From Psammoneis japonica (lineage: Eukaryota): DNA of 64,000 bases. Below the pieces are notes generated by a model, which made no database searches, was not told the origin of the DNA, and saw nothing but the letters and a program-made list of their open reading frames with translations. Positions 5,048 through 60,476 of the stretch are shown in pieces; position 1 is the first letter of the stretch; the number at the start of each line of letters is the position of its first letter. A program made the translations under genes and the position numbers. The DNA lies in contig QPGO01000087.1 in assembly GCA_008632985.1 (NCBI GenBank), positions 1 through 64,000 on the forward strand, written 5' to 3'.

Positions 5048-5049
<2 letters not shown>

Positions 5050-19100: not shown

Positions 19101-19238
19101 TGACACAACCTTGCCACACCCTCTTTCAGCAGACTGTTGGCAGCTTCTTTGACAGCAAGGCCCTTCAGAGACTGCTGTTTCTTTGCCCTCGTCCAGCCAG
19201 CTTGTTTGCCACAATCCACCAACACAAGATGCACCTTT

Positions 19239-19322
19239 GGATTCCTGACAACTTCCCAGCCTGTGTTCCTGGATTCCTGACAACTTCCCAGCCTCTTTTC
19301 CTGGATTCCTGATGATTTTCCA
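19239..19322. repeat. 31-bp tandem repeat, ~3 units
   Basis: ggattcctgacaacttcccagcct repeated. Confidence 0.75.
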
Positions 19323-23877: not shown

Positions 23878-23912
<35 letters not shown>

Positions 23913-24830
23913 AGAGCACAAATCTTGGCCTGTTGACCTCGCCGCACATGCCTTGCTCAGATTTTGTTCCAAAACTGCAATGCAACATGGGTCCTTGCCA
24001 AAACCCAATGGGTTCAACAACAAATTTTCCAAGAACTCGCCACTCTTGCCCTTTTTTTGACTTGCAACACCTTGTTCGGCATTCTGGCGAGGCACGATGA
24101 TGAAAATGATGGGTTTGTGCAAGATGATCACATGAGAACAAAAAGCCTCTTGCATGAAGTTTGCTGCAATCGTTTGCCATGCACCCTGATGGCTGCCACC
24201 ACCCATGGTGTTCTTTGTCTCATTGGCTTCTTGATCAAAACACACCACACCCCTCCTCTCACACACACAGCTGCNTTCTGGCGAGGTGCAGTGACAAAAA
24301 TGATGGGGTTGTGCAAGATTGATCACATGAGAACAAAAAGCCTCTTGCATGAAGTTCACTGCAATCTTTTGTCATGTGCCTTCATGGCTGCTGCCACCCA
24401 TGGTGTTCTTTGTCTCATTGGCTTCTCGCTCAAAACACACCATTTCCCTTCTCTCGCACACACAGCTGCTGGCTGCTGCCACCTCTGACTTCATTTTGCA
24501 CTTCTTTCCACATGTTTCTCATTGCTCTTGCTCAATGTGCTTTTTAAAATTATGGACCTCAACATTGAAGGCACTTGAGAAGGGAATGGCTGGGTGTTGG
24601 GTGTGCTGCACTCTCTGGGAGAGCAGGAGCTTTGTGAGAAGTGTGCCGGCTTGTGTGTCCTGCCTGTGTCGCAAATCTTCTTGAGAGCTTGAGCTGAGCA
24701 CTGGGCTGAGTTTGAATTGTTTTGTGCTGGGAATGACTTCAGTGGTTAGAGCCCCCCCTCACTTAGGCCCACAAATCCCTTCCTCTGTGGTGGCCCCTGC
24801 TCTCTAGGGCCACTAGCGCCGCCGCTGATG
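21960..24830. repeat. TpA/CpG-depleted degenerate block
   Basis: Almost no TA. Contains a ~155-bp tandem duplication (22436-22750), (CA)n at ~23879-23910 and a ~195-bp duplication (24100-24470). Confidence 0.8.
23879..23910. repeat. (CA)n microsatellite
   Basis: About 16 CA units. Confidence 0.9.
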
Positions 24831-25042: not shown

Positions 25043-26251
25043 ATGGTACAAGATTCGGAGAACAATGAGAAGGACCTCAAATCTACAAAAGAGGAAGAGG
25101 AGTTGATCAAGACGACGTTGGGTAGTGAACCTCGGGCGACGCGCGAAGCGACCGTGAAACGCTTGATGCACTCTTGTATGGACGGCGTCCGACTCCCTGT
25201 GACGTGCACGGCCGTGGTCCCATGCTTGTATCGGATATTCCAAAGAGTGCGACCGGCAACGGTGTCATTATGGGTATCGACGAAGCCGGTCGTGGACCGA
25301 TTCTCGGTCCCATGACGTATGGTGCGGCGTTTTGGAACCCCGACGTTCAAGATTGCATTCCCAAAGGATTCAACGATTCCAAAGCTCTTTCAGCCGAGAC
25401 GCGTTCCAAGCTGTTTCAAAATATTTTAGACAATCACGAGATTGGCTTTGTGTTGCGTGTTTTGCACGCTTCTGAAATTTCGCGCAACATGTTGCGGAGT
25501 CAACCTTATAATCTCAACGCCATGTCGCATGATGCAGCCATGCTTATGGTGTCGTCCGTGTTGAATGCCGGTGTCAAGATTGACACATGCTATGTCGATA
25601 CCGTAGGAAATCCGGATGCGTACCGTACTCTGTTGGAGCGGGAGTTTGTGGGACAGGGGATTCGTTTTGTGGTGGAGAAGAAGGCTGATGCCAAGTATGC
25701 GCCTTGCTCTGCAGCGTCTGTTGGTATGTTTTATGAAAGCAGTATCGACCTCGTGGACCGCTATGCTTATCTAAGCGAAACATTTTCTAATTATTCCTTT
25801 TTCGCCACATACAGTCGCCAAGGTTTCACGAGACCGAATGATTGAGTCATGGAAATGGTCCGAGACAAACTTTGAAGCACAGGGTGGCTTGGACTTTGGT
25901 TCCGGATACCCCAGCGATCCAAAGTGCAAAACGTGGGTGGAAAATAATCTTGTTGATCCTGTCTTTATGTTTCCAGACCTTGTTCGGTTCAGTTGGGGGC
26001 CCGCCAAGAAGGCTGCAAAAGAGCACGGCGTGGCTGTAGAGTGGGAAGCGGACGAAGACGAGGACAATAATGTTGATTCGGACGGAGTCAGCAGGCAGCA
26101 GATGGATATGAGCTCGTTTGTGGTTGGAAGCAAAGCAGTAGAGAAGAAGAAAAAGAAGCAGAGTGCCTCTTGCGTCTTGACGAAGAAACCGAGGCTTGCA
26201 TACTTTGAAAAGAAGGGGCTTCGAGCTGTGTCAAAATTATCAGTGTCCTGA
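25043..26251 (+). CDS. RNASEH2A: Ribonuclease H2 catalytic subunit A
   Basis: GIDEAGRGP, NDSK, YVDTVG, KKAD, GSGYPSDP; SAASVVAKVSRD is rebuilt across intron 25724-25814. Start uncertain: ATG 25043 needs an indel near 25175, otherwise a downstream ATG is used. Confidence 0.9.
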
Positions 26252-30099: not shown

Positions 30100-32568
30100 A
30101 TGGGATCTAAAAAGAAGAAGTCCAAAAAGTCCAGGAAAAATGAAAACAGAAGGAAACATCGGACGCCGTCAAGGTTGAATCCAAGTCTGAATCTCCCCGA
30201 AACGACGAAACGTCCTCAAAGAACAATCCAAATTCCTTTCACAGCATTTCACCTCCTCTGTCGAGTGGCGTGTTGCAATATGTCGACTCTCATTCCTTTC
30301 ACACCATGACTCCTGTACAAGCCACGACGATTCCGCTCTTTTTAACAAACAAGGACGTGGCCGTTCAGGCCGTGACGGGAAGCGGAAAGACACTTGCCTT
30401 TTTGATTCCCATTGTTGAAATGATCTGCGACGAACCGTTTTGCTCACCAAACGACAAGTCGGAGCTTTGGTGTTGAGTCCGACGCGAGAGCTGGCACGAC
30501 AAACGTACCAAGTTGCTCTGGAGCTTTGTCGGCTGTCGTCCCTGTCGGAACCATTGTTGTTGGTGGGAGGAACGTCTGTTTCGGATGATTTGAGACTGTT
30601 TCAGAAAAATGCAAGTGACATTGTGATTGGTACTCCCGGTCGTATGGAAGATATTCTGACACGCTATGATGTTTTGGATGTGTCTGAATTGGAGTGTCTC
30701 GTGTTGGACGAAGCGGATGTGTTGTTGGATATGGGCTTTGACGTGGTCTTGACGAATATTCTCGGTCGACTGCCGAAAATGCGACGAACCGGTTTGTTTA
30801 GTGCTACTGGGACAGCCGGCGGAGTTGGTGGTGCTGGAAGTAGGGGTTTCAAGGAATTAGTGTCTCGAGCTGGAATGAGAAATCCCGTTTGGATAATGTG
30901 GCAATCGCTGCATCAAACAACACCAATGATAATACAGAGGCTCCCGATAAACAGAAGGACTCGACAGATGATCCAAAGACTCCTTCTGGAGAACAAGCAA
31001 CACCGTCCTCGCTAACCAACTATTACCTGGTATCACCATTGGACGAAAAGCTGTCTCGGCTTGTATCCTTTCTCAAATCACACCGAAACGACAAGGTGAT
31101 TGTCTTTTTCCTAACGTGTGCCTGTGTCGAATTTTATGGTGCCGCGTTACAACAAATTCTCAAAAAGAATCACTACATGGAACTGCTGCACGGTAAAATG
31201 GTTCAAAAGCGGCGAGAAAAAGCCATGGAACGGTTTCGACAAGAATGTACACTCGAAGAAGAATCCACCACTGACAGGAAGAACCGTGGCGGTGTGTTGC
31301 TTTGTACGGACGTTGCAGCTCGTGGTTTGGATACGTATGTCAATTGGGTGGTTCAGTTTGATGCACCGACGGATCCGGCATCGTATGTGCATCGGGTCGG
31401 ACGGTCGGCACGTGCCGGGCGAGTTGGATCGAGTCTCTTGTTTCTGACCGAGGAGGAAGAGAGTTATATTGATTTTTTGCAAATGAAAAAGGTGCCGCTA
31501 TCACAGCTGCCAGACACAGAAGTATGCGCACCGCCACCAGAATCAGAAACCAATGTCACAGACGGCTCTGACACAAACAAGCAAAATGATGACGAGGACG
31601 AAGAAACCGAGACACGCGTCATTCGGAGCGCCGTCGGACCAGATCACACATTGCAGATGTTTTACCAAAGGTTCGAAAGATTGTCATGTCGGATCGCGAT
31701 GTACTGGAAAAGGGAACAAAGGCATTTACATCCTACATTCGTGCTTACAAGGAGCACCACTGCGCCTTTATCTTTAGGTACGTCTCGATCTCTCGTTATA
31801 CATGAGTGTTTCGCAACGGGCGGGCCTGCTGCCGGTACAGACTGAAGAATCATTTGAAGCGGCTCCAAAATGGAGCTACATTCTGTGATTCTTCCTTGAC
31901 GACCGGATTGTCTCCGTCGAATGCAATAACAACCTTTTGAAAGAAATTCAGTAGTTCTTTCGCAGAGTCATACTCACTGCCTCTCATTAAATCACCACGA
32001 GAGGATCAGTAACCCAGGACTCGTACAGATTCAGATAAGTTCATGCAACCATATTGTGCGACCCTATTCTAACTTGTGATCATTCTCTCTTATGCTAAGG
32101 TTCGCTTCTCTCGATTTGGGTTTGCTTGCCACTTCGTTTTGCTTGTTGCGTTTGCCCAAAATGCCCGAACTCCGCGACAAGGAGCTCGTCAACTTCAAGC
32201 CCGCTCAAGTGGATATTTACGCCATTGCCTTTAAAGATAAAACAAGAGAAAAGGCTCGTCAAAAGCGACTTGCTGCCGAACTGGCGGCGGGTGGCAAGAA
32301 TGCCAAGCAAATCAAGGCCGAACAGCGACAGGCCGAGCGGTTGCGCAAACAAAAGGAACGCCGCCAAGCGGAAAAGGCCAAGGGGCGCAACCCGGACAAG
32401 AAACGGGGACGGCAGGCACAAATGTTTGACGAATGGGACGATTTGGCAAAAGAGGAGCGTCTTTACAAGAAACTGAGGAGAGGGAAAATCACAAAGGAGC
32501 AGTACAAGAAACTCATGTACGGTGACGCCAAAACAGAAGAAGAGTTTGACAGCGATGACTCCGAATAA
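30100..32568 (+). CDS. DDX55: DEAD-box RNA helicase DDX55/SPB4 (several apparent 1-nt frameshifts; intron ~31779-32099)
   Basis: [61 protein letters not shown]-terminal [10 protein letters not shown] and basic tail. Confidence 0.9.
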
Positions 32569-40634: not shown

Positions 40635-42112
40635 TTAGGCAACATTAGCGCACAGAACCCAGAAAGTTCCTGCGCCATTACCTTCAGCTTTGAAAAGCCA
40701 TGCTCTACCACCAGTGGGACGAGATTCCACGATTTTTCGAGTATCCGCGAGGGTGAATCCACCGCTAATTGCAATCTTGTTACCTGGACAATTAAAGGTT
40801 TGAATTACGTCGCCCGGAAAATCAAAAGATCTTGTCTCAAGAGACACGCCACTAATTCCAGGAGGACCAGGTGGACCTACTAGACCTCGGGGGCCATCCA
40901 TTCCAGGAGGGCCTTGGGGACCTGCCAAAGGTGCAATGCGGTATAATTCTTTGCATGAGCGAAAACGTAAAGTGAAACTGCTGCATAGAAGCATGTGCAA
41001 CGACCAACTTACCTGCATTGCCTCGGCTGCCAATCGGACCTTAAAAAAATATAGAAAGATGCAACGTTATGTAAAGAATTGTGAGACCGACGCGATTTGG
41101 TGGTAGAGATATGAATATCGCAAGTTTGCCTTGTTTGAAAGATGTAACGACGAAGTCAACCTGTGTGCGTCACTACGCCGGTGCTGACCTACCTCTGGGA
41201 CCCTCGTTACCTTGAGGTCCTTGCGCTCCTCTGTCGCCTGTTGGAGCCCAACAGCAATACGAAAGTGAGGATCATCTGTACTTTCCCGAACAATCTCAAG
41301 CACAACGCGCGGGAAACAAAAAATTCCAAGGACTACGTTGTACCTACCTTTGTCACCCTTGTCGCCTTTATCTCCTTTTAGACCTGAGTAATGAAAAACC
41401 AACATGATTTTCTCGTTTGCAAGCTTGTCATCGCAAAATATTATATACAGATGTGCGACAGCTTTTGAACGACGTACCTTTGATTCCCTGCGGACCTCGA
41501 TCGCCTGGCATGCAAACGTGGGTGAGAATGAGAAAAACACAACTGTGTTATGAAAACGAAACGCAATGCCTTTCCACGCACCTTTTGGCCCTTGGATGCC
41601 CTGGCGACCTTTGACACCTGAAGATAAACGCATAATGAGGCAAGTGTGCAACAATGGGTTAGCCGTTTGTATTCGCACGTCGAACGAAATAAGGGAACTC
41701 CATGGCACACGCGCCCACTGATATAAACGTACCTTGGATACCCTGCTTGTTTACTTTAACAGAGTAAATTTTTGCCGGACCACCAAACATCAGGCATCCT
41801 GCCGAAGTTGTCGCGGCACCAACGGCTTTGTTGTCTTCCTTTTGAAGGCAAACGAAGAAAGGTTCTGGGGAACCAGGGATGCGTGGTGGTGGTGGGCTGG
41901 TGGGGCCAGACCCACTGGAGAGCCTGCGATCCAAGTTATCGCCACTCAAAAGACGAGCTTGTGCTCCTGATTCCCTTTGAAAATGCACGCCGACGAAAAG
42001 AAAACAGTGTTGGAAAGGATGAACGAGTTTTATTTGTAGTGTCAGATGGTCAACGACGCATTCATCACTTACCCTGATACACAAGGAAGGATAGAAGTAA
42101 TGCAAGTTTCAT
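40635..42112 (-). CDS. Secreted collagen-like (Gly-X-Y) protein, paralog 1, 8 exons
   Basis: Signal MKLALLLSFLVYQGAQA; micro-exons of 36, 27, 36, 45 and 27 nt encoding Gly-X-Y; C-terminal CPGNKIAISGGF...SRP...W...VLC domain. Confidence 0.8.
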
Positions 42113-42834: not shown

Positions 42835-44383
42835 ATGAAACTTGCACTCTTTCTTCCCTTTCTTTCGTACGGTAAGACCCCGACTTTCGCAATGCTGCAA
42901 AGTTCCGCCTTGATGACGGCGATTCATTCCCACCAGAACGATTTCTCCTCATTGTCGTTTGCTTCATTTTTATCGCTGTGACTGTGTTGTTGGGACGCAG
43001 TAGGAGCACACGCTCGTCTTTTTAGTAAAGACGACTTGGATAGGAGGCTCTCTAGTTCCGGGTCTAGTTCCAAAATCTCCTCCCCACCAAGGATCATAGG
43101 CCCCCCTAAGCCCTTCTTTGTTTGCCTCCAAAACAAAGACAACGAAATTATTGGCGCCTCGACAACCTCGGCAGGATGCCTGATTTTTGGTGGCCCAGCT
43201 AAAATTTACTCCGTTGAAGTAAGCGCCCAAGGAATTCAAGGTGCGTTTGAAGAACACCCTTCAGAGCGCACATCTGGTTAAAGTGAGGTAGTGACGACTG
43301 CTCACATTCAGTATTTTGCTGCATGCTTGCATCATTTCGCTTTGTACAACAGGAATCAGAGGTCCCCGGGGTATTCAAGGGCCAAAAGGTATGTTCAAAT
43401 GAGGGTTTTGCCGTTTTCTGAGCCTGCGAAATCGACGGTTGATGCACGGAATTATTGTTTTCTCATATTCTTACCTGCCCAAAAATTCTCGCAGGCAATC
43501 AAGGTCAGCAAGGAATTCGAGGTACGTGAAGTTGCTGATGCACATCTACATTTAAGGTCGCAAATTTGCAAACATACATAATATTGGTCTTTCATGAGTC
43601 AGGGCTAAAAGGAGACAAAGGAGACAAGGGTGACAAAGGTAGGTAGCTTAGTCTTGGGATGAATCGCGTCTTCATCCCACTCTGTTCGGGGAAGTGACTT
43701 ACCATATCTTTCCTTTCTGCTTGTTGTTGTAAAAAAGGTGACACCGGAATCCAAGGTCCAAAAGGAAATACTGGTCCTAGAGGTAAGGTCAATATATCGT
43801 GTTGTTTAGTTCTACTCCGTTGAAGAAGCATCTTGATCTAACATTGTAATCCTGTCTCGATTCGCAGGTACGTGCACAACGCATGCTATCGCGATATTCA
43901 TATCCCATCACCAACAAAAAGCCTTCCTCACCATCCTGTAAAATGAAAATCTGGTTTTTCGAAAGGCCCTGCTGGCAGCACTGGTTCAAGGGGTGAGTCG
44001 GTCGTGGGGGTGTTTCGATTTTCTCTCAATTTCTCTTATCCAAGAAGCACTGTTATCGCATAACATATTTAATAGGCCTTCCAGGGCCTCCTGGTATGAA
44101 TGGTCGCCAAGGTACGCGAGGTTTGGCCGGTCCTGCGGGAAACAGTGGCCTTGTTAACGAGTTCACTCTTTTCACGGTCAATGAACCGGCCTCTAAACCT
44201 CGCAGGAGAGCCGAAGTCACATGTCTTGGGGGTTCTACGAAGAAACCAATTAGCGGAGGATTCACCCTACGACCTGGTCAGACAATCAGGGAATCCCGTC
44301 CCACTGGCGGCCGAGGATGGTTGTTCGACATAGAAGGTCGTGGGGTAGCCGAGGTGTATCTTCTCTGCGTTAATGCTGCATAG
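42835..44383 (+). CDS. Secreted collagen-like (Gly-X-Y) protein, paralog 2, 8 exons
   Basis: Exons 42835-42871, 43001-43240, 43353-43388, 43495-43521, 43603-43638, 43738-43782, 43966-43992 and 44076-44383; all introns GT-AG, phase 1. Confidence 0.82.
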
Positions 44384-44685: not shown

Positions 44686-46920
44686 TTAACTCCACGCCTC
44701 CACACTATATCGACCTGTTTGTTGCAGCTTTCTCAGCACAAGCTTGGCTTGATTCTCGCCCACTCGTTTCTCGATACATTCTCGTATCTCGTCCTTGACG
44801 GATTTCGCCATTTTGGCTCCTCCTGCGACATACATGGCTCCTCCACTCTCCAAGACGTGTTGGGCAATCAGCATTCCGTTATTGGCCTTGCCAATGACTT
44901 GTTGTACATAAATCTTGTGCCACTGATCCCGACTGAAGGCCGTCATGACCGTCAACTGACCCGCAAGGACGAGAGTCTCCCACTCGTCACGGTAATAGTA
45001 GTCGCAAGCTTCCTTTCGACAACCAAAGATAAGGATATTGTCGGCGAGTGACGAGTCGGCATCGTTAGATTGCTTCTTATCACCGTTGACTGTGCTGTTA
45101 CTTCTACCCTGATGAGACGCCTGTCTCAAGACTGCAACTCGCTCCAACAATAGAGAGCGCAGCGGCGCGATTCCCGTTCCTGCCCCGACACACAAGATCG
45201 GCGTTTCAAATCGAGTTTGCCCATCTGTAGAAACAGCGGTCTCTAGTGGAAGTTTTCCAAACGAGCCAGGGCGAATCCAAAGACGGAGCAGTCGGCCGCT
45301 GTCGGGTGTGTTGTTTGAAAGGAAATTGGAACAAAGGCCATGAAACGTTCTTCCAAGAGGAGTCGTGCCCCCAACGACAGCCACGCACAGTTCAATGTCA
45401 AAGCTGCTGTTATGTTTCAAATCGTCACCGGCAGTCAATGAGTGGTCCGCATCGGTGTACGACGGTGCACTCGCAATGCTGAAATCGCGTGGTCGAATCG
45501 CAGGCAAGAGGGACAGTAGCGCCTCCAACGTCAGTGCATGGTTACTGGCACTCGTGGAACCTTCCCACCGAATCGAATCAAAGTCATAAAGCACGTCGGA
45601 CCAGTTTCGCTTCTCACGCAAAATGTAGTCAGCAAAGAGTGCTGCGCCAGACGTTTCACTCAGAGAAACGAGTTTTTTTCGTTGGTCGCGACCCATTTCG
45701 TGCTCTTGTTGACAGTAGTATGCAAGCACACGCAAATCCTCTCGTTCGGGAAGTGAACCAATGTCGGCACAATACGTAAGCAAACCGCGGAGGGTGCAAC
45801 GACGAGGCCATGGATTCGAGCCGCTACCAATGGGTGTGATTTCCAATTCGTGGTCGGCGACAGCACGAATTGCCGAAGGCAGCACATTGAGCAGCGTTGA
45901 CACACCCTTGTCCGTGTTAAAGGGGAGAACGGTAGCAACGTCCCCGGCCTGATAAGGGAGCTCCAAATGTGATGATTCTGTTGACTCTGAATCATTTTGT
46001 TTCGTCTTGATGCGTATCTGCAAATGCCTTGTGTCTTGTTCCCAATCAGAAGCAGTGATTCTGTCATTTTTCAGTACTTTGGCTAACAATGGCGGGGATC
46101 GAGTTCTTCTTCCAACTTGTTCCAGTCGCGAACTTTTTGAATATTGATAAGCAGTCATAGGACACCATGTTTCAAAATAACTGTTGTACAGTGCATTGTA
46201 CGTATCTCGCTCCCATTCCTCTATGGAATCACAAGTGTTGTTATCCGTCTCATCCTTGAGTACGCAAACACTGTAACGAATCGGTGGACGCTCCAGTTCA
46301 AAAGTAGGAGATATGGGACTCTGCAAGCCATCAAATCGCTTGTCTATTGCCGGCAACAATGTTGTTTCTAACCAAACATCCAAATCATAAAACACACCGC
46401 CATTTGGTGTTCCATCATCGCCGAATCCAACCCCACAAAACGGACTGGCGCCCAGTTGTACCAACCGCGCCGCAAGCTTGCGTCCGCCTGCACAAAATAG
46501 TGGTCCGTACGCTCGATCCCCCAAACAAAACAGCGCAAAGCTTACGTTTGAAAATAGGTCGCGAGGCAGGGATTTGCTTCGTCTGTAAAAATATGAAGAG
46601 CGATGTGATTGAGATACGGTACCGAGAATTTCATCACGAATCTTCAACAACAAATCAACTACTACTCACAATGCTTTCCACGTTTCCGATATCGAATCAC
46701 ACTGCTCTCCATCGCCGGTGGTACTGACAAACAAAAACAAAACCTTCCTGTTGCTTTTTGGATGCATGAATTCCGCATCACAATCAAACTCGCATCCTTC
46801 TCCAAGGATATTGAGGCCCTTTTGAGACCGAAGGATTCTCGCCGTCCGACGAGCGCAAGCCTTGGCACGTCCGGTTTGCGTGGACCACAAAATCGAGCAT
46901 TGTGGAGTATTCTCAGTCAT
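44686..46920 (-). CDS. NDOR1: NADPH-dependent diflavin oxidoreductase 1 (Tah18/NR1-like)
   Basis: STQTGRA, STTGDGE, FCLGDRAY, RDFSIAS, GAGTGIAP, FGCR, KIYVQ, C-terminal EAWS; one intron ~46584-46669. Confidence 0.88.
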
Positions 46921-50035: not shown

Positions 50036-51235
50036 TTATATTAAAGCTGGATTCTTTCGTTTGCTGTTGCCAGACTTTTCTCGTTTTCTCTTTTTGGGAC
50101 TTGCCTTGTCGTGCTCTATTTCGCTTGTTTGAACAAAAGCCGAAGAATGCAAAACACCACCAAACATCCATCGATTCTTTACAAATAAATCATTGGCCAT
50201 TGTTCCACTTTGTCGTACACGGCTACCGGCATAGGGGTTTTCTCCAAAAAACATGACTTCGTCTACGGGTACAACGTCATGATTGTCGTCTCCCTGCATC
50301 ACAGTGGCAACGACCGGCGGCAGAGCTGATACGTGTCCTTTTTCAAAAAGAAACTGACAATCGGCAATGGCTTCGAATTGTGTATTGGTTGTCACCAAAA
50401 ACGGTGTATCCTTCGATATGGACGACAAGGCAGAATCCCATTCATAATCCGGACAGGTAAAACCAGGGTTGAAAAAGACAACCAAATCTGCCTTTTCGAG
50501 TGATTCGTCCTTTGCATCATATTGGCGACACCGAGTCTCGCCGACAAACTTGTATGAATAAAAGTCATCATTAGGTTTTGTTCTTTGTTCCACAAGGTCC
50601 TTTGCAGGACATTCGGGTCCCACAAAACACACACGGATCGTCTTTAATCGGTGTTGTTCCGCGACAGACGACAAGGCCTCTGCGTATCCATCAAATGCGT
50701 CGTCCTTTCGCTTTGAACCCCACAGCTCGACATCACTTGATGCACCAATCACATGAATCACAAGGTCTGTCTTCTTTGCAATGGACTCTTGAAAGCATGG
50801 AGCATCCAAAAGAACGTTTGCGAGCGTTGCGGGGTAGGACTCGTATTCACTCTGCACTCGTTGCAGGGCAGCTTCGTCGTCGTCCTTATTCCTCTTGTTG
50901 TTGCTGCTGCTGGCTTCGGCGTCTTCATCGGCTTGACAGAGAGCCAAAAGTGCACAAATAATAGATGAATGCCCCATGGCTGTTGTTTCCTCATTACTGT
51001 CAAGTTTGTTTGACGCATCCTGTTTACGACACTCTTTGGAACAGTACTTGACGCGGTGGCATGCTATGCACTCGACCTTTACATTCTTTCGACTGGCACA
51101 CGTGCAGCAGGCGTTGAATCCCAGCGAGATAATGTCATTCGCATCATTATTATTTTGTAGCCTTTCTCCTAAATGCGCAATGCGAGTTTGCTGCTCGGGT
51201 AGCTCCTCGAGATGAAGCGACGCCAAGAGGTCCAT
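50036..51235 (-). CDS. MYND zinc-finger protein, MSS51/ZMYND17-like
   Basis: CCTC..CIAC.RVKYCSKEC, HVIGAS, FVGPE, FFNPGF, ENPY. ATG at 51235; the longer ORF-track start lies inside the LTR. Confidence 0.8.
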   Translation of the reverse strand: MDLLASLHLEELPEQQTRIAHLGERLQNNNDANDIISLGFNACCTCASRKNVKVECIACHRVKYCSKECRKQDASNKLDSNEETTAMGHSSIICALLALCQADEDAEASSSNNKRNKDDDEAALQRVQSEYESYPATLANVLLDAPCFQESIAKKTDLVIHVIGASSDVELWGSKRKDDAFDGYAEALSSVAEQHRLKTIRVCFVGPECPAKDLVEQRTKPNDDFYSYKFVGETRCRQYDAKDESLEKADLVVFFNPGFTCPDYEWDSALSSISKDTPFLVTTNTQFEAIADCQFLFEKGHVSALPPVVATVMQGDDNHDVVPVDEVMFFGENPYAGSRVRQSGTMANDLFVKNRWMFGGVLHSSAFVQTSEIEHDKASPKKRKREKSGNSKRKNPALI

Positions 51236-51256
51236 GGTTGCGTTATGTGTGCTGTG

Positions 51257-51490
51257 TGTGATAACTCTCGTCTGAGAGTTAGGAGAAGTCGACGGAAGGT
51301 CGAGTCGTATTGCTAGCAGTAGGGCTAACAATAGCGATAGAATCGATAAAGCTGCTAATGTCTTGTTACACTAGGTGTTGTAATTGTGAGCAGAAAAAGG
51401 GGAGAAGTTCTCCAAAAGAAGGGCGGGAACCGCATACGGTACGTAAGTGAAGAGCGCGCGAATCGCGCATGAGTTCGTACTGTGTTGACA
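51257..51490 (-). repeat. 3' LTR of the 7-kb Copia
   Basis: Direct repeat of 58026-58261. Confidence 0.93.
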
Positions 51491-51510
51491 CTCCCTCTCG
51501 AACGAAGAAG

Positions 51511-54500
51511 CTACCAACCGCAAAGCAATTTGCGAATAGACTCAAATTTGACTGTGACGAGTCCTTTTGTTAAAATGTCAGCGCGTTGCAGGTCTGTTGC
51601 GATCTTGGATACGGTAACTCGGTTTGGTTTCAGCTGTGAACGAAACCAGCGACACTTGATTGCGCAGTGCTTGGACCTTGGCGCAATTCGGCCAGGTTCC
51701 ACGTCAGCCAGAGTCAAGGCTCCAGCATTGTCCTCCCACACGGTGGTCCTGATGGTCTTGGTGGTCCCTGGACCAACTCCAATGCCTTGGGAAATGGCTT
51801 GTACAGTGCGAAGAAAGGGAAGGACAGTGTTCATGCATGTGGAGAGAGCACTGCACACTCTGCTTCCATTGTTGAGAGTGCGATCTCGGGTTCAAGCTTG
51901 CTGGACCAGATGACAGGACAGTTTGAAATGCAAATGACAAATCCTGTTCAGCTCTTGACACAAGCCGGGTCTTGCTTGTCTTCATGCAGCCACAATCCAG
52001 CAAAATCTGAGTCTGCAAAAACATCAATGTTGAAGTCCCCAGATGGCTTGAGGATTGAACCTTCCTCCAATGTGCCTTTGAGGTGTCGGCCGATCCTCTC
52101 GAGGGCTTGTTCATGTGAGCGGCGTGGACTGTGAACAAATCTTGCGGCAGAGCTAACTGCACAGGTGATGTCGGGCCTTGAATGGCCCTGGAGACACTGG
52201 AGCATGCCAACAACACTGGCATGATTGAAGGCTCCATTTGGTGGGTCTCCATCGGTGTCCTTGACCAATGGAGCAGCTAGCGCGGGTGTTCGGGCCTTTG
52301 GCAGATGGCCCACATTGAGGGCTTCGACGACACGCTTGGCTGGGCCGCTCTGGGTGAGCTTGACAGTGCCATTGTCGGTGTCGCAATGGATGTGGACGCC
52401 TGAAAAACCTGCGACGGAATCCTCGACTTCGATGGCCAGACTGCCATCAATTTTGAGTTTTTCAATCACTTCGTCGATGCACTCTTGCTTTGGTGAAAAG
52501 AACAATGTGTCGTCAACATGCACAAGGCAGATGACCTTGTCGGACACAAAGAGACACGGATCAACATCATCTTGAGATTGAAATCTGGCGTCTTCAAGTT
52601 TTGATTTGAGGTGCAGGAAAAAGTTGTGTGGTCCTTGCTTGAGACCACACACGGTCTTCTTCAGTCACAGCACTTTGCCAGGCTTTGTGCATCTGCAAGG
52701 CATTTGTGTGAACACACCAGAGCATTCCCGCTCTTTGGGTGTCACAGCATCCCATTTGGGATTTTTGTCAATCGGAGCATGCAGGAAAGCCGTGACACAA
52801 TCAACTTGCTTCATGGAGAGCTCAAGAATCTGAGAAAGCATGAGCATCAGCCGCACTGTTGTCCAATTAACAACCGGAGCAAAGGCATCAAAACAATCAA
52901 CACCTTCCAATTGCTTGTCACTGCGGACACAGAATTGAGCTTTGTGTTTTTGGAATGACCCATCAGGGTGCCGTTTGCACTTGAAGGCCCAAGTGGATGG
53001 CAGAACATTCATCCAATCTTGGCGGTCGACTTCCTCCCAAGCATCTTTGCCTTTGACAAGGGAGTCAATTTCGACATCACAAGCCTTGAGATGGGCTGCA
53101 CGATTGGGTCCACTCACAGCTTCTTCCCAAGCAGGGTTGTTGGCGGAATTTGCATTAGCTGCTGGAGCCAGAGGATGCATTTCTTCAAGTGTGCCGTGAA
53201 CTTGATCGGCATTTTTGTTGAAAAGGTTGATCACAGCACGCAAGTCTTTTGATTGGAGTGTGTTTGTAACGCTGTCCCACTTTGGTGCCATCAGAAACTG
53301 CTTGTTGAGTGTCTCTGACTCAACCATTCGTTGGGGATTCTTGCAGGCTGTCGGCAACTCGTTTGGAGGAATGCGAACATCAGCCGTCATGGCTTCAATG
53401 AGGCGGTCCGGTTTCTTGATGGCACGGCCGCTGCGAGTCCGAGTGGCAATGGCAGGAGTGTTCGGAGCCGCTTGAGTGGGCTCAGCGATGTCTGAACCAA
53501 GATCCAAGTCTTCAGGCAAGTCGTGATGGTTGACCAGGGACAATTCGTCATCGCTGTCATCACTGGGCTCATCGATCTCGACTCCCTCTGGAGCCTCTGA
53601 AGTTGCAGATGCCAGATAATCCGATGATTCAGGATCAGTGGGAAGCTCTCCCTCTGGAGCTGTGACGGAAGAGGTTGGTTGAGGAGGGGTTTTGCCAGGA
53701 GGGGCGCGCTGTTGGCGGTGTAACTTCCGCGCCTGACAATGGTTCTCGCGGTGGTGGCGCTCTTCAGGCATCAGCCAATCGTCATGCAGTGCGGGCAAGC
53801 GATGGCAAGGGTCTTTGGAAGGCTCGTGGTCAAGAGTGTGGTTGACTGCGGAGTCAGCAGCAAGCAGGGACTCCCAAACATCAGTGGAGAAAGGGACGTC
53901 CTGAAAGCACCCCCCAGAGTTGCTGTTGGGTGCGGTGGAGAAGTGGTTGTCATAGACCACATGGCATTGAGGGCTAACACAGCCTGTCACAAGGTTGAGG
54001 ATCAGGCCAATGTTCGTAGAATGAGCCGGGGAGATGCCAAGGCATTGGCCGCGACAACTGCATGGATCCCACTTTGGAACTTTCTTGCCATCCTGTAGTT
54101 TGGGATCTAAAACATGCGTGGGACAGCCCCACACCTGCAAGTGCTGTAAATGCATGTGGGAATCAAAGTGTTGCTTGGAACAGATCTCGACAGGAGCAGT
54201 GCGAGTGTCAATTTTCGGAAGATGATTCCACAAACAAGCGGCGTGAGTCATGGCAAAAGGCCAAATTTCCAGATTGGCTGCATCAGGCCACACAAGGACG
54301 GCATGGAGCAACACAGATCTTGCCCATGAGGTGATGGTTTGTGTGGAGCGCTCGGCGATGCCGTTTTGATGATGGGCACCAACACCAGAGAAGTCGATCG
54401 TCTGGTGGTTTTCTTCGAGATCTTGCATGAAGGCCTCAGAGCCGAAAGGCACATTGTTGGCAAGGCATTGCTTCACCTGGACCCCAAATTGGTCACTGAG

Positions 54501-56626
54501 CTGCTCAAAGGCGCGCTCAGCATGCACAGTTTCACCTGCAGTGAGACCAACTTGATGGGTCAGGAACACACAGCTAGAAGCATGATCGACAAAAATCGTG
54601 CGCCGCTGCACTTGTCTTTCTCAGGTTCACGCCCCTTGGTTGACGGAAGATGGCCAGGGATGCAGCTGATGTGCTGGTCAATGGAGACGCATTGACCTGG
54701 AGATAAATCGCCCTCTTGCAACACCATGGGCGGAGGTTTCGATGCACTGCGGCGGTCCGGAGTGCACCGCTTTTGTTTGGCCAGTTGACAGGTGGCACAT
54801 GATGGAGGTGTGCAACCTGCCACCGCATTGGATTTGGGTTTAAGGACTTGGGATTTGGCAGGATCCCTTGGGATGGCACTGAGACGTTGGATGTGTTGAA
54901 AGCCAGCGCGACCGAGTTTTTGATGAAGCAGCAGAAGCTCCTTTTGACCTGGAGCAAGGTTTTGATTCGTCTGTGAAGTGACGGACAAGAAGGCATCCAG
55001 TCGGTCTGCAGTGCTGATTGGAGCCAAATTGCACCTGGAAACTCCAGCGGATGTCGGTTCGGACATCATCATAAAAGGCAAGTTGCTGTCCTTGTTGTGC
55101 GGGAATTCAAGGGTGTCACCACTCGGGAGAGTTGGGGCGGCTTTGTTGCCACGCACTGAACATTCACCTTGATTTCCATTTTCTTGAAAACAGGTTTGCG
55201 GGCTGAAAAGGCGGACAGAGGTGTCAGGGACGTAACAAGCCTTGGTGCGGACGGTGCGCACAACGTTCCAACAGTCGATTGCATCCCATTTGACGTAACC
55301 CTGACCCACAACACGAGCAGCAGAGAACAATCCCTTGATCATGGTGAGTTCTGCAGGTTCAAGAGGGCCTGTGAAGTCACTCAAGTGCGGAGTGAGAGAG
55401 GAAGAGGCGCTGGCATCAAGTGCCACGGGCACATCAACAGGTGAGGCTGATGACAGAGCTTGACATTGTGAGCTGTCAAGATGTTGTAAATTGGCTAACG
55501 ACTTGATTGGTTTTGTCAAATCTTCGGAGAGCCAAGGTGGATCTGGCAAGAATGCGTCAGTCAGGGACGGTCCAAATGTCAAGGTTTGGTGGGAGAACAT
55601 GGCTGCGCCGCCGAAACCAGTCAAACAGGTTGCTGCTGTCATTTGAGACAGATTGGTTGCTGTGCAGGAGAGAGCAGGTGCTTCTCCGCAAGCTCGTAGC
55701 ATGTCCTTTGAGGCAAGTGCTTTGATCACAAGAAATTGTGCAAGAGGGTCAATTCCTTGCACAAACTCATCCAATGAGATTCCAAACTGCACGTCGTCCA
55801 TGATCCAGGATTGGTGCGGCAGTCGGTGTTTGATGCGGGCAAACTCTTTGAGTTCGTGTTCTTCGGGGTCGTCCGGTGGTGCAAAATTGGAGGGCGCTGT
55901 GTCAGTGGGATTGAATTCAGCAGACTCAGTCCGCAGGTGATTGCCCAGCAGATCCAGCAACATGACAAAATCAGTCAGTGTTGCACTGTGCAGCAAATCG
56001 TACATCTCAGAAGGTGGATGTAGGAGTTGATGATTGATTTGTGCATGAGCTTCGTTGGCTTCTTGAATGGGATCAACGCAGACAAACCCAGGCTTCTTGG
56101 GTTTCACAGGCTTGACTCGACATCTTGATTTTAAGAGTTTCCAGGACTTGGATCGGCGACACTGCTTGAAATTGGTCTCTGCGACGGCAGCATCATCCGG
56201 CATGGGTGCTTGACGTGTGTGGCGCCAAGTCATTGGATGAAGGAAGGAACAAGTGGGGTCTCTTTGTGGGAATCGAACTGGACGACGGTCCAAACGACAA
56301 ACTTGCGCGTGATGACATAATTTGTGGCGCGTCTGACGATGAGGATGATGATGATGTGGATTGTGTTCCAAGGACGAGGTGACAACAAACCAAGGCATGT
56401 CATCGTATGAGAGCAAAGGATTCCTGGAAAAGAGCAGCAAGCAGAAAAACAATCCACCTGCCAAAACAAAAAGGAACTGCAAAACAGCAGAGACGTCTGC
56501 TTCTCCTCCCTCTCCAAGAATCTGGAGAGCGAACCATAAGAAGAGGGACTGCGCCGCAGTCACACAAGCCTGGATGTCCCTTCCAGGAAAGGTTGTTTTG
56601 CTGAAAAGCGAAAAAGAATGGGCCAC
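51511..56626 (-). pseudogene. pol: Copia pol (protease, integrase, reverse transcriptase, RNase H), disrupted
   Basis: VALDASAS, HQKLG..C..C, HHQNGIAER, WGCP.HVLDP, FAPVV, CGLKQ, LVHVDD, EDNAGA, ADILTK; in-frame TGA stops and frameshifts. Confidence 0.92.
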
Positions 56627-56656
56627 ACGCTCAAAGAAGGAGGCGCGCCCAAAGCT

Positions 56657-57960
56657 TCAGGTGAAGGAAGCAAAGAGACCAGCAATGGTCTCGGCGACCT
56701 CGCGCTTGGCGTTCGTGACAGCCACTTCGCGGTCCGGATGCGGAGCGGAAGCAGGGGCCAGAGCAGGGGCAGGAGCAGGTGCAGGAAGTGCTGGGGACGC
56801 AGTGGCAGCACCAGCAACTTGAGCAACAGGGCGCCAGTGCTTGGTTTTGTAGTGATGACAGTGGTCTTTACCATCAATGTTGCGGCGACTGTCATTGTTC
56901 TTCTCGGCTTCAGCCGGTGGTTGCCATTTCTTAGGAATGGTCTTGATCGGCTCACCATCCTTCCTGGAGGAGGAATTGTTTTTGTTTTGGGCCGTTTCGC
57001 ATCGAAAAATGGTTTCTTGTTTGCACGCACTCGTGCATCGTCGATGGGCTGCTTGCAGTCGGAAAGAGGATGAGGGCCACCACAATTGAAGCAGTCAACT
57101 CTTCCGGCAACAAATGCGGTTGCATTCTTCTTAGCAGTCACGCCGGACCACTGGTCGGAAGATGCAAGGGCCAGGTGTCGAGCCTCCGTGAACTCAAGGA
57201 GATCAGGCATGGATGTGGCACTGATGCTCGGACCACTGGACTTGAGCTTGGAGATTTGAGAGTCCTTGGTGAGGTGGTCAAAAAGGGAATTAAATTCCGG
57301 GACGCTGGAGGTCTGGAACACCTTGGTGAGGTTTTCCATGAAATCAGAAGGAATGACAGACTTGCCTTTCTGATCCTGGAGGTTCTGGAGTCGAGTGCAT
57401 CCACCACGGATGAGTGAGACGACTTTGCTGACGTCTTCACCATCGAAATTGGTGATCTTAAGCGAGATGATGTTGGCAACCAAATGATGAGCAGCCTCCT
57501 CGGAGTTGCTCTGCAAGAATTTCATCACAAGTGAGAAAAAGAGAGGTCCGCCTTGCTCTTCTTGTGGACACTTGAGGCATGTCTCGTTGACTTTCTTCTG
57601 GAGGGCATGAGAGGCGTTCCTCTCAAAATGGTCACAGGTGAGACGAAGGTTTTGGCTGGCCCAGGTCCCATCATGGTCCTCAAGCATCGCAGCACACCAC
57701 TTGTTGCTCTTCGCGACTTCGGCTTCGGTGATCGTCGAATGCTCGGTGCAGAGATCACGAGTCTTGAAGGTGACAGGATCAACAATTTGGAAAACATCGT
57801 CCACATCGCACTTAACGTGGTTTGACCGCATGGTCGAGATGGACACAGCCAGATCACAAGTGTCTTCGAGCTTGTCTGGATCGTTGATGTTGAAATTTAG
57901 GAGGTCGAAACGCGTCTGCAGTTTCGCAGCAGCTCGTAAAAATGTACGGAGCTCACTTCT
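56657..57960 (-). pseudogene. gag: Copia gag, disrupted
   Basis: QGGPLFF, FDGEDVSK, FQTSSVPEFN, zinc knuckle CFNCGGPHPLSDC; one frameshift after the knuckle. Confidence 0.85.
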
Positions 57961-58025
57961 CATCCACCGGAGAGAAAAGAGATGAGGCGCAGGAGTCGTC
58001 AAGCGTGATGCTTGGGCTCCCAACC

Positions 58026-58261
58026 TGTGACAACTCTCGTCTGAGAGTTGGGAGAAGTCGACGGAAGGTCGAGTGGTAATCGCATTGCTAGCAGTAGGGC
58101 TAACAATAGCGAAAGAATTGATAAAGCTGCTAATGTCTTGTTACACTAGGTGTTGTAATTGTGAGCAGAAAAAGGGGAGAAGTTCTCCAAAAGAAGGGCG
58201 GGAAACCGCGTGCGTAAGTGAAGAGCGCGCGAATCGCGCATGAGTTCGTACTGTGTTGACA
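58026..58261 (-). repeat. 5' LTR of the 7-kb Copia
   Basis: Direct repeat of 51257-51490. Confidence 0.93.
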
Positions 58262-58586
58262 CTGTGTCGGTGTTTTTTTTCGGTGTGTTTGTTCATTCAA
58301 AGACGGGTGGAGGACGACCTACAGACCGCAATGGCGATCTACCGTCGCGTATCAAGCAAAGTTGGAAAAAGTTCGAAGTCGATCTCGTCGCTCGTCGCCG
58401 CATTCATTCGAGCTTTGTGTGGGGGGAGAGTTCTTCCTAGCCCTACTTCTAATTGAAGACGTAATTCCGAACACTCTGTACAGTAGATGTGGGTCAACAG
58501 AGACGAAAGACACAGGAGAGCGAGAGCGAGAGGGTAAATGGATTGGAAGTCTGGAGAATACCGTCGACACGAGTTTCGTAATATTG

Positions 58587-60476
58587 ATGAGTGGGAAGAA
58601 ACCATCCCAGCGAGATGACGACGACGAGAAAGACTGGAGCAGTGGCGGAGTTAGAGCCCGACGGGCTGCAGTACTGCAGCTCTTGTCACATTTATACTTT
58701 ACACGTCGGCTCTGGTTCTCCGTTTGGATCTCAAAAGCCGGCACCGCCAAGGATTTGAACGAGAACCCACCACGCGTACCACTGTCACAGATTTTACCAC
58801 CACCATGGCTCGAGAGTGTTGCTGGATGGACATATCTGGCGTCGCTTCTCGCGCAATTGTTGTTAGTCAGCGGCTTCATATCCGACACCAATCGATCCGC
58901 TACTGTCTCTTCTTGGATGGCAACAATTGCATTCTCTGTGGTTGCGACCTTTGATTGCGCGCACTTGCAGCCTCCAGTACTTACTGGCTTGGCGTTGATC
59001 CTTTGTAACGATCCGACGGCACAGCGCGTCGTCTTGGCAGGAACTTGGCTGTGGTCGGGTCTTCACAAGGTCAACCCCGGCTTTCTCAACAAAGAACACC
59101 ACACTTTGATTGATCCGGTCTACTCCTTGGTGCTTGGATCCAGTTTTGTCAAACGAAACCGTATTCTCCTGCGTCTCTTGACCGCCATGACTGAGGCTGC
59201 CGCTGGTGGATTGCTCTTGATAGCTTGCGGTCAAACACTTCCTCGTCGTTGTCGTCGAAACTTGCTCATTCTAACTCGAGTGAGCGTCTTGTTTCTGGTA
59301 TCCATGCACGCTGTCATTATTGTGCGTCTCATGCAAACTCGATGGAACTACCACGTTCTTGGGTGGAATGTAAGCTGCCTCTACTTAGCCTTGGTGCTGT
59401 GGCGGCATTGCTGGGGGCGGCGATATCCACACAAGAATGGTGATGGTGCAGAACAGAGAAAGATTCGCCGATTGGTTCTACTGACATACATAATTGTGTT
59501 TACAATTGCCCCAGCTACCGTGACATTTGGTTACCTGGATCCATACCTGGGAAATTCGAATTACTCCAACAATGTCCCCTCACTCGAGATGGAGCTTCCT
59601 GTTGGTGGTGGAGTGGCAGCAGCAGCAACCCATTATGAAATACCGGTATACCAGAAATGGGGCCTCATTGATGAGTCATTCATTCCAGCAATGTCGCACG
59701 ATGGACGACAAATTGTTCGCATGGACTATCTCACCTTTCACATCAAGGCAAAAGGAACCGTCGGCTACCCTTCCGTGTGGGCTCACAAGCAGTTTGCACG
59801 GGACCTCTGTGACAAGCTTCGCGCAGCCAATCTTGCCACTGACGACGCGCGGTTCTTTCTCTCCCTCCCGTATACGGGATGGACTTTGTGGGAATCTTTG
59901 TGGGCCACAGCATCATTCACAACTCAAACACCACCACTGCCACCACTCTTTGTGCAGAAGAAATGCAGCAATGAATGGCGGCCGTTTCAGTCACGGTTAA
60001 AACAAGGAGTTGGTTCCTTGATGGAACGGGACACTGGTATCTCTGCAACGTTTTCGACAACACTGCAGGAATCTCATCCTCCTGTCCAACTCTTTTGGGT
60101 CGACACGCGCTTGTCGGTTTTGCAAACCGATGGGACCGTCACGACGGTGACCCTCCTACAGCAGGGACAACTTGGCAGTGTTAACATTGCACCGAAACAC
60201 ATTCAGACGTTTGTCGGGCACATGTTTGTGGCTGCTCGGGACATCAACCACCAAGGTGGTTTGTGTTGTTTGGTGGTGTGGATCGCACTGCCCAATGAAA
60301 GCACGGATGGTGTATCCCAGCAGCACTTTGTGTTGGGGAAAGAGATGATGAACTCGACACATATTGCACTGCCGGGGATGAAAGCGTGTGAAGGACTAGC
60401 AGCAGAAACAGAAGCCAACGCACCGCGACGGTTTTCCGATGAAACCAGGCATGTCGTCGCAAACGATGAACTATAG
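58587..60476 (+). CDS. Multi-pass membrane protein (HTTM/DoxX-like) with C-terminal VHL-beta-like domain
   Basis: Several hydrophobic helices; WSGLHKVNPGF, E...G..LL, MH..I, WN..V..WN; VQLFWV...TFVGHMF. Intronless. Confidence 0.6.
   Translation: MSGKKPSQRDDDDEKDWSSGGVRARRAAVLQLLSHLYFTRRLWFSVWISKAGTAKDLNENPPRVPLSQILPPPWLESVAGWTYLASLLAQLLLVSGFISDTNRSATVSSWMATIAFSVVATFDCAHLQPPVLTGLALILCNDPTAQRVVLAGTWLWSGLHKVNPGFLNKEHHTLIDPVYSLVLGSSFVKRNRILLRLLTAMTEAAAGGLLLIACGQTLPRRCRRNLLILTRVSVLFLVSMHAVIIVRLMQTRWNYHVLGWNVSCLYLALVLWRHCWGRRYPHKNGDGAEQRKIRRLVLLTYIIVFTIAPATVTFGYLDPYLGNSNYSNNVPSLEMELPVGGGVAAAATHYEIPVYQKWGLIDESFIPAMSHDGRQIVRMDYLTFHIKAKGTVGYPSVWAHKQFARDLCDKLRAANLATDDARFFLSLPYTGWTLWESLWATASFTTQTPPLPPLFVQKKCSNEWRPFQSRLKQGVGSLMERDTGISATFSTTLQESHPPVQLFWVDTRLSVLQTDGTVTTVTLLQQGQLGSVNIAPKHIQTFVGHMFVAARDINHQGGLCCLVVWIALPNESTDGVSQQHFVLGKEMMNSTHIALPGMKACEGLAAETEANAPRRFSDETRHVVANDEL

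Follow-up and report, generated by a model that had tools for sequence, protein, structure and literature searches.

The window analysed here is the whole of a 64,000-nucleotide stretch of DNA (positions 1 to 64,000 of the forward strand of contig QPGO01000087.1, Psammoneis japonica assembly GCA_008632985.1), and all coordinates refer to it. An earlier note, made from the sequence alone, had described positions 51511-57960 as a full-length Copia element destroyed by repeat-targeted hypermutation of A to G and T to C at the dinucleotide TpA (TA). This stretch was found to be the interior of a full-length Ty1/Copia long terminal repeat (LTR) retrotransposon on the minus strand, from the core of which nearly all TA has been erased. 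The parts of the element, including its open reading frame (ORF) pieces, are as follows.

51252-51256, no strand: target-site duplication CTGTG, low side (the same five bases stand at 58262-58266)
51257-51490, minus strand: 3' LTR (TG...CA), one of a repeat pair, TA not depleted
51491-51620, minus strand: spared fringe beside the 3' LTR, with a purine-rich tract (candidate polypurine tract, PPT) and the end of the ribonuclease H (RNase H) frame
51511-51891, minus strand: ORF piece, RNase H C-terminus, 126 amino acids, 0 Tyr
51621-57810, minus strand: TA-erased core (gag, protease, integrase, reverse transcriptase (RT), RNase H), 35 TA in 6190 bp
51948-52664, minus strand: ORF piece, C-terminal half of RT with HVDD for YVDD, 238 amino acids, 0 Tyr
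52665-54620, minus strand: ORF piece, C-terminal part of integrase and N-terminal half of RT, 651 amino acids, 2 Tyr
54560-56656, minus strand: ORF piece, protease/integrase N-terminal region, 698 amino acids, 4 Tyr
56560-58140, minus strand: ORF piece, gag-like, its upstream end entering the 5' LTR, 526 amino acids, 0 Tyr
57811-58025, minus strand: spared leader beside the 5' LTR (primer-binding site (PBS) side), 4 TA in 215 bp
58026-58261, minus strand: 5' LTR, 12 TA versus 17 in its twin
58262-58266, no strand: target-site duplication CTGTG, high side

The LTRs have TG...CA ends and are enclosed by a perfect 5-bp target duplication, as expected of Ty1/Copia elements. The RVT_2-type RT was matched twice (41 bits in 52665-54620 and 32.2 bits in 51948-52664; Pfam cut-off 31.6) and lies downstream of the integrase, whose SH3-like domain (SH3_retrovirus) scored 25 bits in 52665-54620, below the Pfam cut-off of 27; this is the Ty1/Copia gene order. 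No Pfam match was obtained for the gag-like piece 56560-58140. Within the window, proteins of relatives matched the span 51514-55894 (tblastn), and the closest proteins were Copia polyproteins from diatoms (Fragilaria, Nitzschia, Fistulifera and Cylindrotheca) and marine metagenomes, with identities of approximately 45% across the whole query and at most 62% over part of it. The frame of the element is broken at about four places, TGA stops flank four of the five ORF pieces and there is a 1-bp frameshift at 54600, where other copies in the sequencing reads have one extra C. The LTRs and the CTGTG duplication confirm the earlier description of the element as full-length, while 'destroyed' overstates the effect of a type of mutation which makes no stops.

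Only 44 TA were counted in the 6450 bp of 51511-57960 (observed/expected ratio, O/E, 0.12), with CA at 1.59 and TG at 1.39, while AT (0.89), AA (1.16) and TT (1.24) were on a par with the rest of the window. The O/E of TA was 0.40-0.80 in ordinary 1-kb windows and approximately 0.55 in the flanks of the element, compared with 0.10 in the core, where TG was 1.40, CA 1.61 and CpG 0.64. The pol region contained 6.1 TA per kb versus 36.9 +/- 10.9 (minimum 18.6) in 42 metagenomic relatives, and 97 TG and 96 CA per kb versus 76 and 76; relative to these sequences, TA is down by approximately 31 per kb, TG and CA together are up by approximately 41 per kb and CpG is lower by approximately 4 per kb. 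The lost TA thus resurfaces as TG and CA in equal parts, the depletion is far beyond chance, and we regard the pattern itself as almost certainly genuine.

Loss of tyrosine was equally marked in the predicted proteins, with 6 Tyr in 2239 amino acids over the five ORF pieces (0.27%; Cys 2.3-4.0%, His 0.8-5.1%), compared with 1.01-4.31% in 120 relatives and a minimum of 0.84% among 132 further cluster representatives. In 14 columns with a conserved Tyr among 41 long relatives, the element had no Tyr but 6 Cys, 6 His, 1 Val and 1 Phe; by piece, all five such columns in 51948-52664 were Cys or His and none of seven in 52665-54620 was kept, whereas the integrase/RT piece retained 193 of all 252 conserved columns. 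The hand counts of the earlier note (about 40 TA in about 6.4 kb and about 6 Tyr in about 2170 amino acids) agree with those computed here, all eight of the motifs which it quoted (HVDD, CGLKQ, GVDCF, RHLKGT, PQCHVV, PTHVLDP, DITCAV and KHCAIKC) were present in the translations, and the genes between the depleted stretches of the window have ordinary TA, as it had stated for neighbouring genes. Of the sense-strand stop triplets in the element, 131 of 150 were TGA. A total of 45 ORFs of at least 80 amino acids overlap 50500-59000; on both strands of 51621-57810 TAA and TAG are nearly absent, and many of these ORFs are accordingly long but spurious.

The same composition might in principle have evolved in the element itself, if an active Copia lineage had come to avoid TA under pressure from a UA-cutting nuclease or from TA-rich silencing signals. 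Long open frames do persist, other copies may be free of the frameshift at 54600, and the copies seem alike in their TA-poor state. The open frames are, however, a by-product of the process, because it removes TAA and TAG and makes no stops. Catalytic and structural tyrosines have been replaced, including that of YVDD (now HVDD), and no comparable depletion was seen for TA in any of 77 loci or for Tyr in the proteins of approximately 250 relatives. None of the 77 metagenome loci of relatives had a TA O/E below 0.37; these loci were found by means of peptide patterns, one of which starts at a Tyr/Phe/Leu position, and edited copies were perhaps under-sampled. Unrelated stretches of the window show the same loss of TA, and pairs of LTRs record the same change as neutral divergence (both described below). 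An evolved composition is thus largely refuted already, and we consider it very improbable.

Several relatives with heavy CpG decay retain their TA (locus L058, for example, has CpG at 0.18 yet TA at 0.69), and methylation decay as such therefore does not carry loss of TA with it. Four environmental Copia relatives carried Cys or His at conserved Tyr columns (P0024, 4 of 6; P0041, 4 of 13-14; P0264, 4 of 14; P0241, 5 of 14). Partial editing in other hosts may account for these states, or the substitutions may be native, and the four are offered as leads only: transitions are the commonest changes of Tyr in any case, and P0241 has several full-length members of identical size, so its states may be native.

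The direction of change was assessed in 101 conserved columns where the element departs from the consensus of its relatives, by seeking a single base change linking the codons; where several ancestral codons were possible the route through TpA was preferred, although most columns have one route only (for example Leu TTA to Ser TCA, Val GTA to Ala GCA and Ile ATA to Thr ACA). The replacements comprised 14 TpA to TpG, 13 TpA to CpA, 3 other A:T to G:C, 18 CpG to TpG or CpA, 1 other G:C to A:T, 28 transversions and 24 multi-step changes, the last two classes being as expected between families that are 45% identical. Polarised A:T to G:C changes were therefore at TpA in 27 of 30 cases, and single-step G:C to A:T changes at CpG in 18 of 19. 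Among first-position A to G replacements (Ile to Val, Met to Val, Lys to Glu, Ser to Gly and Thr to Ala), 7 of 9 were preceded by T. The earlier proposal of A:T to G:C change targeted at TpA on both strands is borne out by these counts and by the near equality of the TpG and CpA outcomes, and the lack of enrichment at TpA which would have spoken against it was not seen. GC-biased gene conversion was rejected as a cause, as the change is specific to TpA while AT, AA and TT are unchanged.

Neither of the familiar decay processes accounts for this loss. Fungal repeat-induced point mutation (RIP) changes C:G to T:A mainly at CpA and creates TpA and stops, and decay of 5-methylcytosine removes CpG only; as the earlier note had argued, neither explains the loss of TA, and the polarity is opposite to that of RIP.

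Among surviving TA in five depleted stretches (n=104), 49% were in the context YTAR and 9% in RTAY (Y, pyrimidine; R, purine), compared with 16% and 32%, respectively, in ordinary DNA (n=1505; chi-square P = 1e-19). Since YTAR reads as TAR on both strands and RTAY as TAY on both, the preference of the edited base is for 5'-TAY-3' where A is the target and for 5'-RTA-3' where T is the target. Survival of TA on the sense strand of the core, scaled to the composition of the relatives, was 3% for RTAR, 4% for RTAY, 20% for YTAY and 34% for YTAR, and the gain in TG was limited to TGY.

The element core is one of four TA-free islands, which together make up approximately 23 kb of the 64 kb, or some 36% of the window. 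The others, with a pair of LTR-like repeats in the third, are as follows (no strand is assigned).

3841-5723: second TA-free island, CpG-free to approximately 5508, 0-2 TA and 0-3 CG per 250 bp
7705-19927: third TA-free island, 12 kb
8087-8371: LTR-like repeat a, paired with 11092-11376
11092-11376: LTR-like repeat b, paired with 8087-8371
21994-24746: fourth island, TA-free and CpG-free

The edges of the islands are abrupt, with 26 TA in 7501-7750 and 1 in 7751-8000. CpG is moderately low from 7.7 to 12 kb in the third island and almost absent from 12 to 19.3 kb, and the older-looking parts of the islands have a CpG O/E of 0.05-0.3 and TG and CA of up to approximately 1.9. The TA-free zones overrun the CpG-free zones by 200-600 bp (5509-5723 and 19338-19927), and the two forms of decay therefore do not share exact borders. 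Loss of TA precedes loss of CpG, as is evident from these overruns and from the core of the element (TA 0.10, CpG 0.64). The changes are restricted to mobile-DNA islands with sharp edges, only one of which was identified as a transposon: no Pfam match was obtained at E <= 0.001 for 83 ORFs in the other islands, and no other copy of this Copia family was found within the window by blastn or by tblastn with its relatives. UV photoproducts at TpA were also rejected as a cause, as their effects would not stay confined to islands. The fourth island contains a single N at 24275, beside a 195-bp two-copy repeat (24082-24470).

The LTRs of the element have escaped most of this change. The low LTR holds 17 TA in 239 bp (O/E 1.06, with CpG at 1.34) and the high LTR has a TA O/E of 0.75; the adjoining 3' fringe has 5 TA in 125 bp (O/E 0.53), and the 5' leader, with its 4 TA, has an O/E of 0.32 and CpG at 1.06. 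CpG O/E is approximately 1.3 in the LTRs, compared with 0.64 in the core. The two LTRs of such an element are identical at insertion, and any differences between them are post-insertion events. Twelve substitutions separate the LTRs of the element: four are TA in the low LTR versus TG or CA in the high one, one is at a CpG and seven are of other kinds, of which four lie where the two copies are misaligned, next to a 4-column indel, and two are in the final two columns of the alignment. The LTR-like pair in the third island (8087-8371/11092-11376) is 92% identical, with 15 differences in 277 columns after exclusion of 4 misaligned edge columns. Five of these are TA versus TG or CA, four are CA/TG doubles, six are CpG versus TpG or CpA and none is of any other kind; as a rough proxy for the rate, nine events of TA type thus compare with no change outside TpA and CpG. 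A CA/TG double could derive from TA or from CG, while the single TA versus TG or CA differences could not derive from CG. In this pair, the per-site yield of the TpA process is several times that of CpG decay. Between the same two repeats, a minus-strand frame of 629 amino acids (8441-10327), for which no Pfam match was obtained, holds a 42-bp tandem array of approximately 9-14 units (8790-9366). Within this array TA, TG, CA and CG occur at one position across the units. The divergence of both LTR pairs and of the array at TA/TG/CA sites supports action on resident DNA, and the process probably acts at least partly on chromosomal DNA.

The assembled sequence was compared with contigs built from public reads, comprising three runs from one sample of one study, which is perhaps the assembly's own source; the comparison is accordingly a check on base calling and not on an independent isolate. 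A sequencing or assembly artefact, such as wrong calls of modified bases where long reads cross methylated repeats, would suit an effect that tracks domains which could be domains of modification, and the single origin of the runs leaves some room for it. However, contigs of the DNA run, which are of short-read type (longest 315 kb, word depth approximately 57 in the flanks), reproduced four interior pieces of the element at single-copy depths of 52-61 with 0-3 differences; the earlier note had called for a check in short reads. The changes are, moreover, coherent at the codon level and balanced between TG and CA, and the twin LTRs differ as expected. An artefact is in our judgement highly improbable.

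Flank contigs extended approximately 30 bases into each LTR, and interior contigs summed to 2-11 times the flank depth (up to 644 versus approximately 57), which indicates that the family is multi-copy. A second run (X2) may be RNA, showing GT..AG skips in the flanking genes; it had no cover over 52000-57999, and nothing was inferred from this gap. An X2 contig which leaves the window at 51620 was considered as an unedited copy and rejected, as the TA-containing sequence into which it continues is not that of the element. No match was found when viral contigs were scanned with the RT piece.

A DNA-level process of the host is, in our view, very likely to be responsible, and the best overall explanation, which we hold to be probable, is that the host edits TpA in place, by a process of the same kind as that reported for the alga Bigelowiella natans (Mettrop et al., bioRxiv 10.64898/2026.01.13.699255). 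Several observations weigh against it. The LTRs, along with 125-215 bp adjoining them, keep their TA even though they are part of the same repeated, inserted unit. Since insertion the LTRs have lost about 4 of 36 TA site-copies, while the core has lost more than 80%; had the process acted evenly in place, the interior would have been stripped of no more than about 11% of its TA over the same time. Survivors in the element are strand-biased, with 17 RTAR versus 1 YTAY on the plus strand (P = 1.6e-5), which a purely symmetric double-strand process does not predict. Of 21 differences between the interior of this copy and other copies in the reads, 14 are of CpG type, one has TA in another copy and there is one CA/TG double (this comparison covers 40 of 362 differing places); a source copy that was already edited may thus have passed on much of the depletion of the interior. 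Finally, adenine and thymine are indistinguishable as the target at a palindromic TpA.

The plus strand of the window, which is antisense to the element, is the more fully edited of the two, and transcription, replication or a cDNA stage are possible sources of this bias; in the island region 7751-12000 the survivor bias is 8:1, and the other islands have too few survivors to judge. Such features would fit editing before integration, in which an adenosine or deoxyadenosine deaminase acts on the RNA of the element and on its minus-strand cDNA during reverse transcription, in the manner of APOBEC3G or ADAR in animals, so that copies arrive TA-poor, the LTRs having become double-stranded early. 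This would account for the sparing of the LTRs and the adjoining fringes and for the heavier editing of the strand with minus-strand-cDNA polarity (RTAR 3% versus YTAY 20%; 17:1 among survivors). Other copies also appear TA-poor, and the target duplication marks the present copy as a genuine product of transposition. On the other hand, the outcomes are equal on the two strands (14 TpG versus 13 CpA; Tyr to Cys 6, to His 6). The 125 bp upstream of the purine tract are spared where, by the known gradient of APOBEC3G, they should be the most exposed. Both LTR pairs have diverged at TA sites after insertion, and approximately 17 kb in the other islands are TA-free throughout with no recognisable retroelement genes. 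The process in B. natans also acts on integrated DNA in growing cultures (bioRxiv 10.64898/2026.01.13.699255). Editing before integration is thus, to our mind, decidedly unlikely.

Returning to editing in place, either the core was exposed to editing at least 15 times as strong as that at the ends or its depletion predates the making of this copy, and the reads lean towards the latter. States shared among copies are weak evidence of shared descent, because the TAY rule predetermines approximately half of the outcomes; the earlier note had held that intact, active family members also encoding HVDD or CGLKQ would refute its proposal, and sharing of the Cys and His states by other copies is perhaps present in part, the copies differing mostly at CpG and not at TpA. 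Some copy must in any event have had its interior edited and its LTRs not, which argues that the process recognises a domain rather than a repeat; silencing chromatin, methylation or small RNAs are possible determinants of such a domain. The description 'repeat-targeted' is not supported: the LTRs are repeated no less than the interior and yet have a TA O/E of 1.06 and 0.75, compared with 0.10 in the core. The main target in B. natans is reported as single-copy (bioRxiv 10.64898/2026.01.13.699255).

As to chemistry, deamination of adenine is our leading candidate, held tentatively. An ADAT- or TadA-like adenine deaminase, as suggested in the earlier note, would be the most economical chemistry and the 5'-TAY bias of the survivors fits it. 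The alternative is that a TET/JBP-type oxygenase or similar enzyme modifies the T of TpA in silenced DNA, to 5-hydroxymethyluracil or 5-formyluracil, and that faulty repair of the modified base or its mispairing with G leads to T to C change on either strand. At a palindromic TpA the outcome is the same as that of adenine deamination, and the survivor bias reads equally well as a preference for 5'-RTA. In dinoflagellate DNA, 5-hydroxymethyluracil replaces T preferentially at TpA, and 5-formyluracil favours T to C change. However, nothing in the sequence prefers a thymine target over deamination of adenine, and the need for a T before the A matches the U33-A34 context of ADAT/TadA. We consider modification of thymine unlikely.

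The TpA signature itself has a precedent, and the statement of the earlier note that no such system had been described is outdated. Mettrop et al. (bioRxiv 10.64898/2026.01.13.699255) report exactly this signature, hypermutation of A to G and T to C at TpA only, in integrated viral DNA of B. natans. Two integrated viral regions accounted for 231 of the 302 new single-nucleotide mutations recorded in 15 mutation-accumulation lines; in these regions all but one were A to G or T to C and every GC-biased mutation was at TpA. The rate was approximately 6e-7 per site per generation, about 1000-fold over background, and the process was episodic, with only some lines affected. The authors also describe 324 coding sequences low in TpA, among which reverse transcriptase, endonuclease-RT and DDE endonuclease are enriched, together with 124 clusters of windows poor in TpA and rich in CpA and TpG. 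They propose an adenine deaminase of ADAT2/ADAT3 type, and their Discussion states that ADAR favours U before the edited A (bioRxiv 10.64898/2026.01.13.699255).

The present case agrees with that account in the restriction to A to G and T to C at TpA only with TpG or CpA produced according to strand, in the limitation to foreign or mobile DNA inside an otherwise ordinary nuclear genome and in the long-term loss of TpA with gain of CpA and TpG. It differs in that the host is a diatom-like stramenopile and not a chlorarachniophyte. The named best matches of a host gene for a diflavin reductase (44686-46665) were all from diatoms, at 47-55% identity, as between diatom orders, which points to a diatom or a very close relative as the host and away from Bigelowiella. 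The targets here are an LTR retrotransposon and repeat islands of no identifiable kind, with a TA O/E of 0.03-0.12, whereas the nucleocytoplasmic large DNA virus insert of B. natans has a Rho of 0.45. That study counted 231 de novo events, whereas the Copia case is read from resident sequence alone. Three features go beyond the available text of the preprint, in which the words 'CpG' and 'diatom' do not occur: the preference for TAY, the retention of TA in LTRs and fringes, and the loss of CpG in the same islands. No report of a TpA signature in diatoms was found in the literature searched, the B. natans preprint being the only description of the signature found. The TpA process thus belongs to a kind described only months ago, and is seen here on a retrotransposon and in another algal phylum; this case adds the preference for TAY, the escape of LTRs and fringes and the order of decay, with TA lost first and CpG after it.

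Likenesses to better-known systems are partial. The process resembles fungal RIP as a localised transition hypermutation which inactivates chromosomal mobile DNA and leaves a sharp-edged dinucleotide footprint. In contrast to RIP, TpA is destroyed and no stops are made, and the equally repeated LTRs are spared here although the family is multi-copy. Hypermutation of retroelements with a preferred neighbouring base is also shared with APOBEC3 and ADAR in animals. These enzymes, however, hit replication intermediates and mark one strand, whereas here both strands are equally affected, LTR pairs diverge after insertion and islands which do not look like retroelements are hit as well. The one-strand bias and PBS/PPT gradient of the APOBEC3/ADAR type were not found in the element, where the outcome is balanced and the PPT-proximal 125 bp are spared, although the survivors show a secondary strand bias. 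Methylation-driven CpG decay runs in the same islands, explains most of the differences between copies and feeds the pool of TG and CA, but the TpA process differs from it in removing TpA and in that the loss of TA is complete before that of CpG.

The sequence of events we envisage is as follows. The host would mark integrated mobile DNA, and A:T would then be converted to G:C in the chromosome, specifically at 5'-TpA-3' and on either strand, with TA becoming TG or CA until almost none is left. Most likely, adenine would be deaminated to hypoxanthine, which is read as G, by an ADAT2/TadA-type deaminase that recognises T-A and prefers a pyrimidine after the A. Tyr codons would become Cys or His codons, and ATA, CTA, GTA and TTA codons would be lost together with TAA and TAG stops, so that the proteins would be wrecked while the reading frames remain open. 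Decay of CpG in these islands would come later and at a slower pace. The domain would be set by a guide, chromatin or RNA, which leaves the LTRs and fringes of a young element untouched. The sequence shows the polarity, the specificity for TpA, the involvement of both strands, the limitation to islands and activity after insertion in two LTR pairs; a role in defence, adenine and not thymine as the target, and guidance by chromatin or RNA are what we infer.

To our knowledge, all hypermutation defences known in eukaryotes before 2026 changed C to T. A:T to G:C change specific to TpA has been reported once before, in a preprint, for one rhizarian alga and mainly in integrated viral DNA (bioRxiv 10.64898/2026.01.13.699255). 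A near-saturated footprint on an LTR retrotransposon of a diatom-like stramenopile suggests that the process is not a curiosity of one species, and it may be widespread in marine algae. It is conceivable, though we think it rather doubtful, that diatoms and chlorarachniophytes share an old defence in which a DNA adenine deaminase guided by chromatin or RNA acts at 5'-TAY-3' in mobile and viral DNA that has been silenced, on both strands, sparing the promoter-bearing LTRs of young elements, alongside cytosine methylation. If so, such a defence would kill elements and yet leave long open frames, with Tyr codons, TAA and TAG erased and no new stops; it would amount to an adenine base editor of DNA that occurs in nature and might give rise to new coding sequence, and a natural DNA adenine deaminase would be of interest for research on both genome defence and base editing. 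The TAY preference, the end of the domain at 125-215 bp inside the LTRs and the co-occurring CpG decay are handles towards the machinery. TA-free, stop-poor islands also yield spurious long ORFs, and these mislead gene callers and screens for foreign DNA based on dinucleotides.

The window was also searched for genes and repeats outside the islands. No deaminase domain was found there at Pfam E <= 0.001 in 49 ORFs (of 84 of at least 110 amino acids in length). A gene for RNase HII (25129-26248) adjoins the fourth island and consists of two frames, presumably split by an intron; the window further includes a tRNA ligase-like gene (439-3678) and one for a DEAD-box helicase (30144-31842). Inverted repeats at 41571-41913 and 43060-43399 have arms of 189 nt and 84 nt that are 73-75% complementary and enclose approximately 1.1-1.7 kb; TA is ordinary here, and one possibility is an old element, of foldback or terminal-inverted-repeat type, which did not undergo TA editing.

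Next to the Copia element, a zf-MYND/MSS51-like gene was recognised from Pfam in a stop-to-stop frame on the minus strand (50036-51370). The element is inserted approximately 14 bp upstream of the first in-frame ATG of this gene (window 51236-51371). A contig of run X2 covers 50767-51371 and so extends from the gene into the LTR, and the Copia LTR may supply the 5' end or the promoter of the gene.

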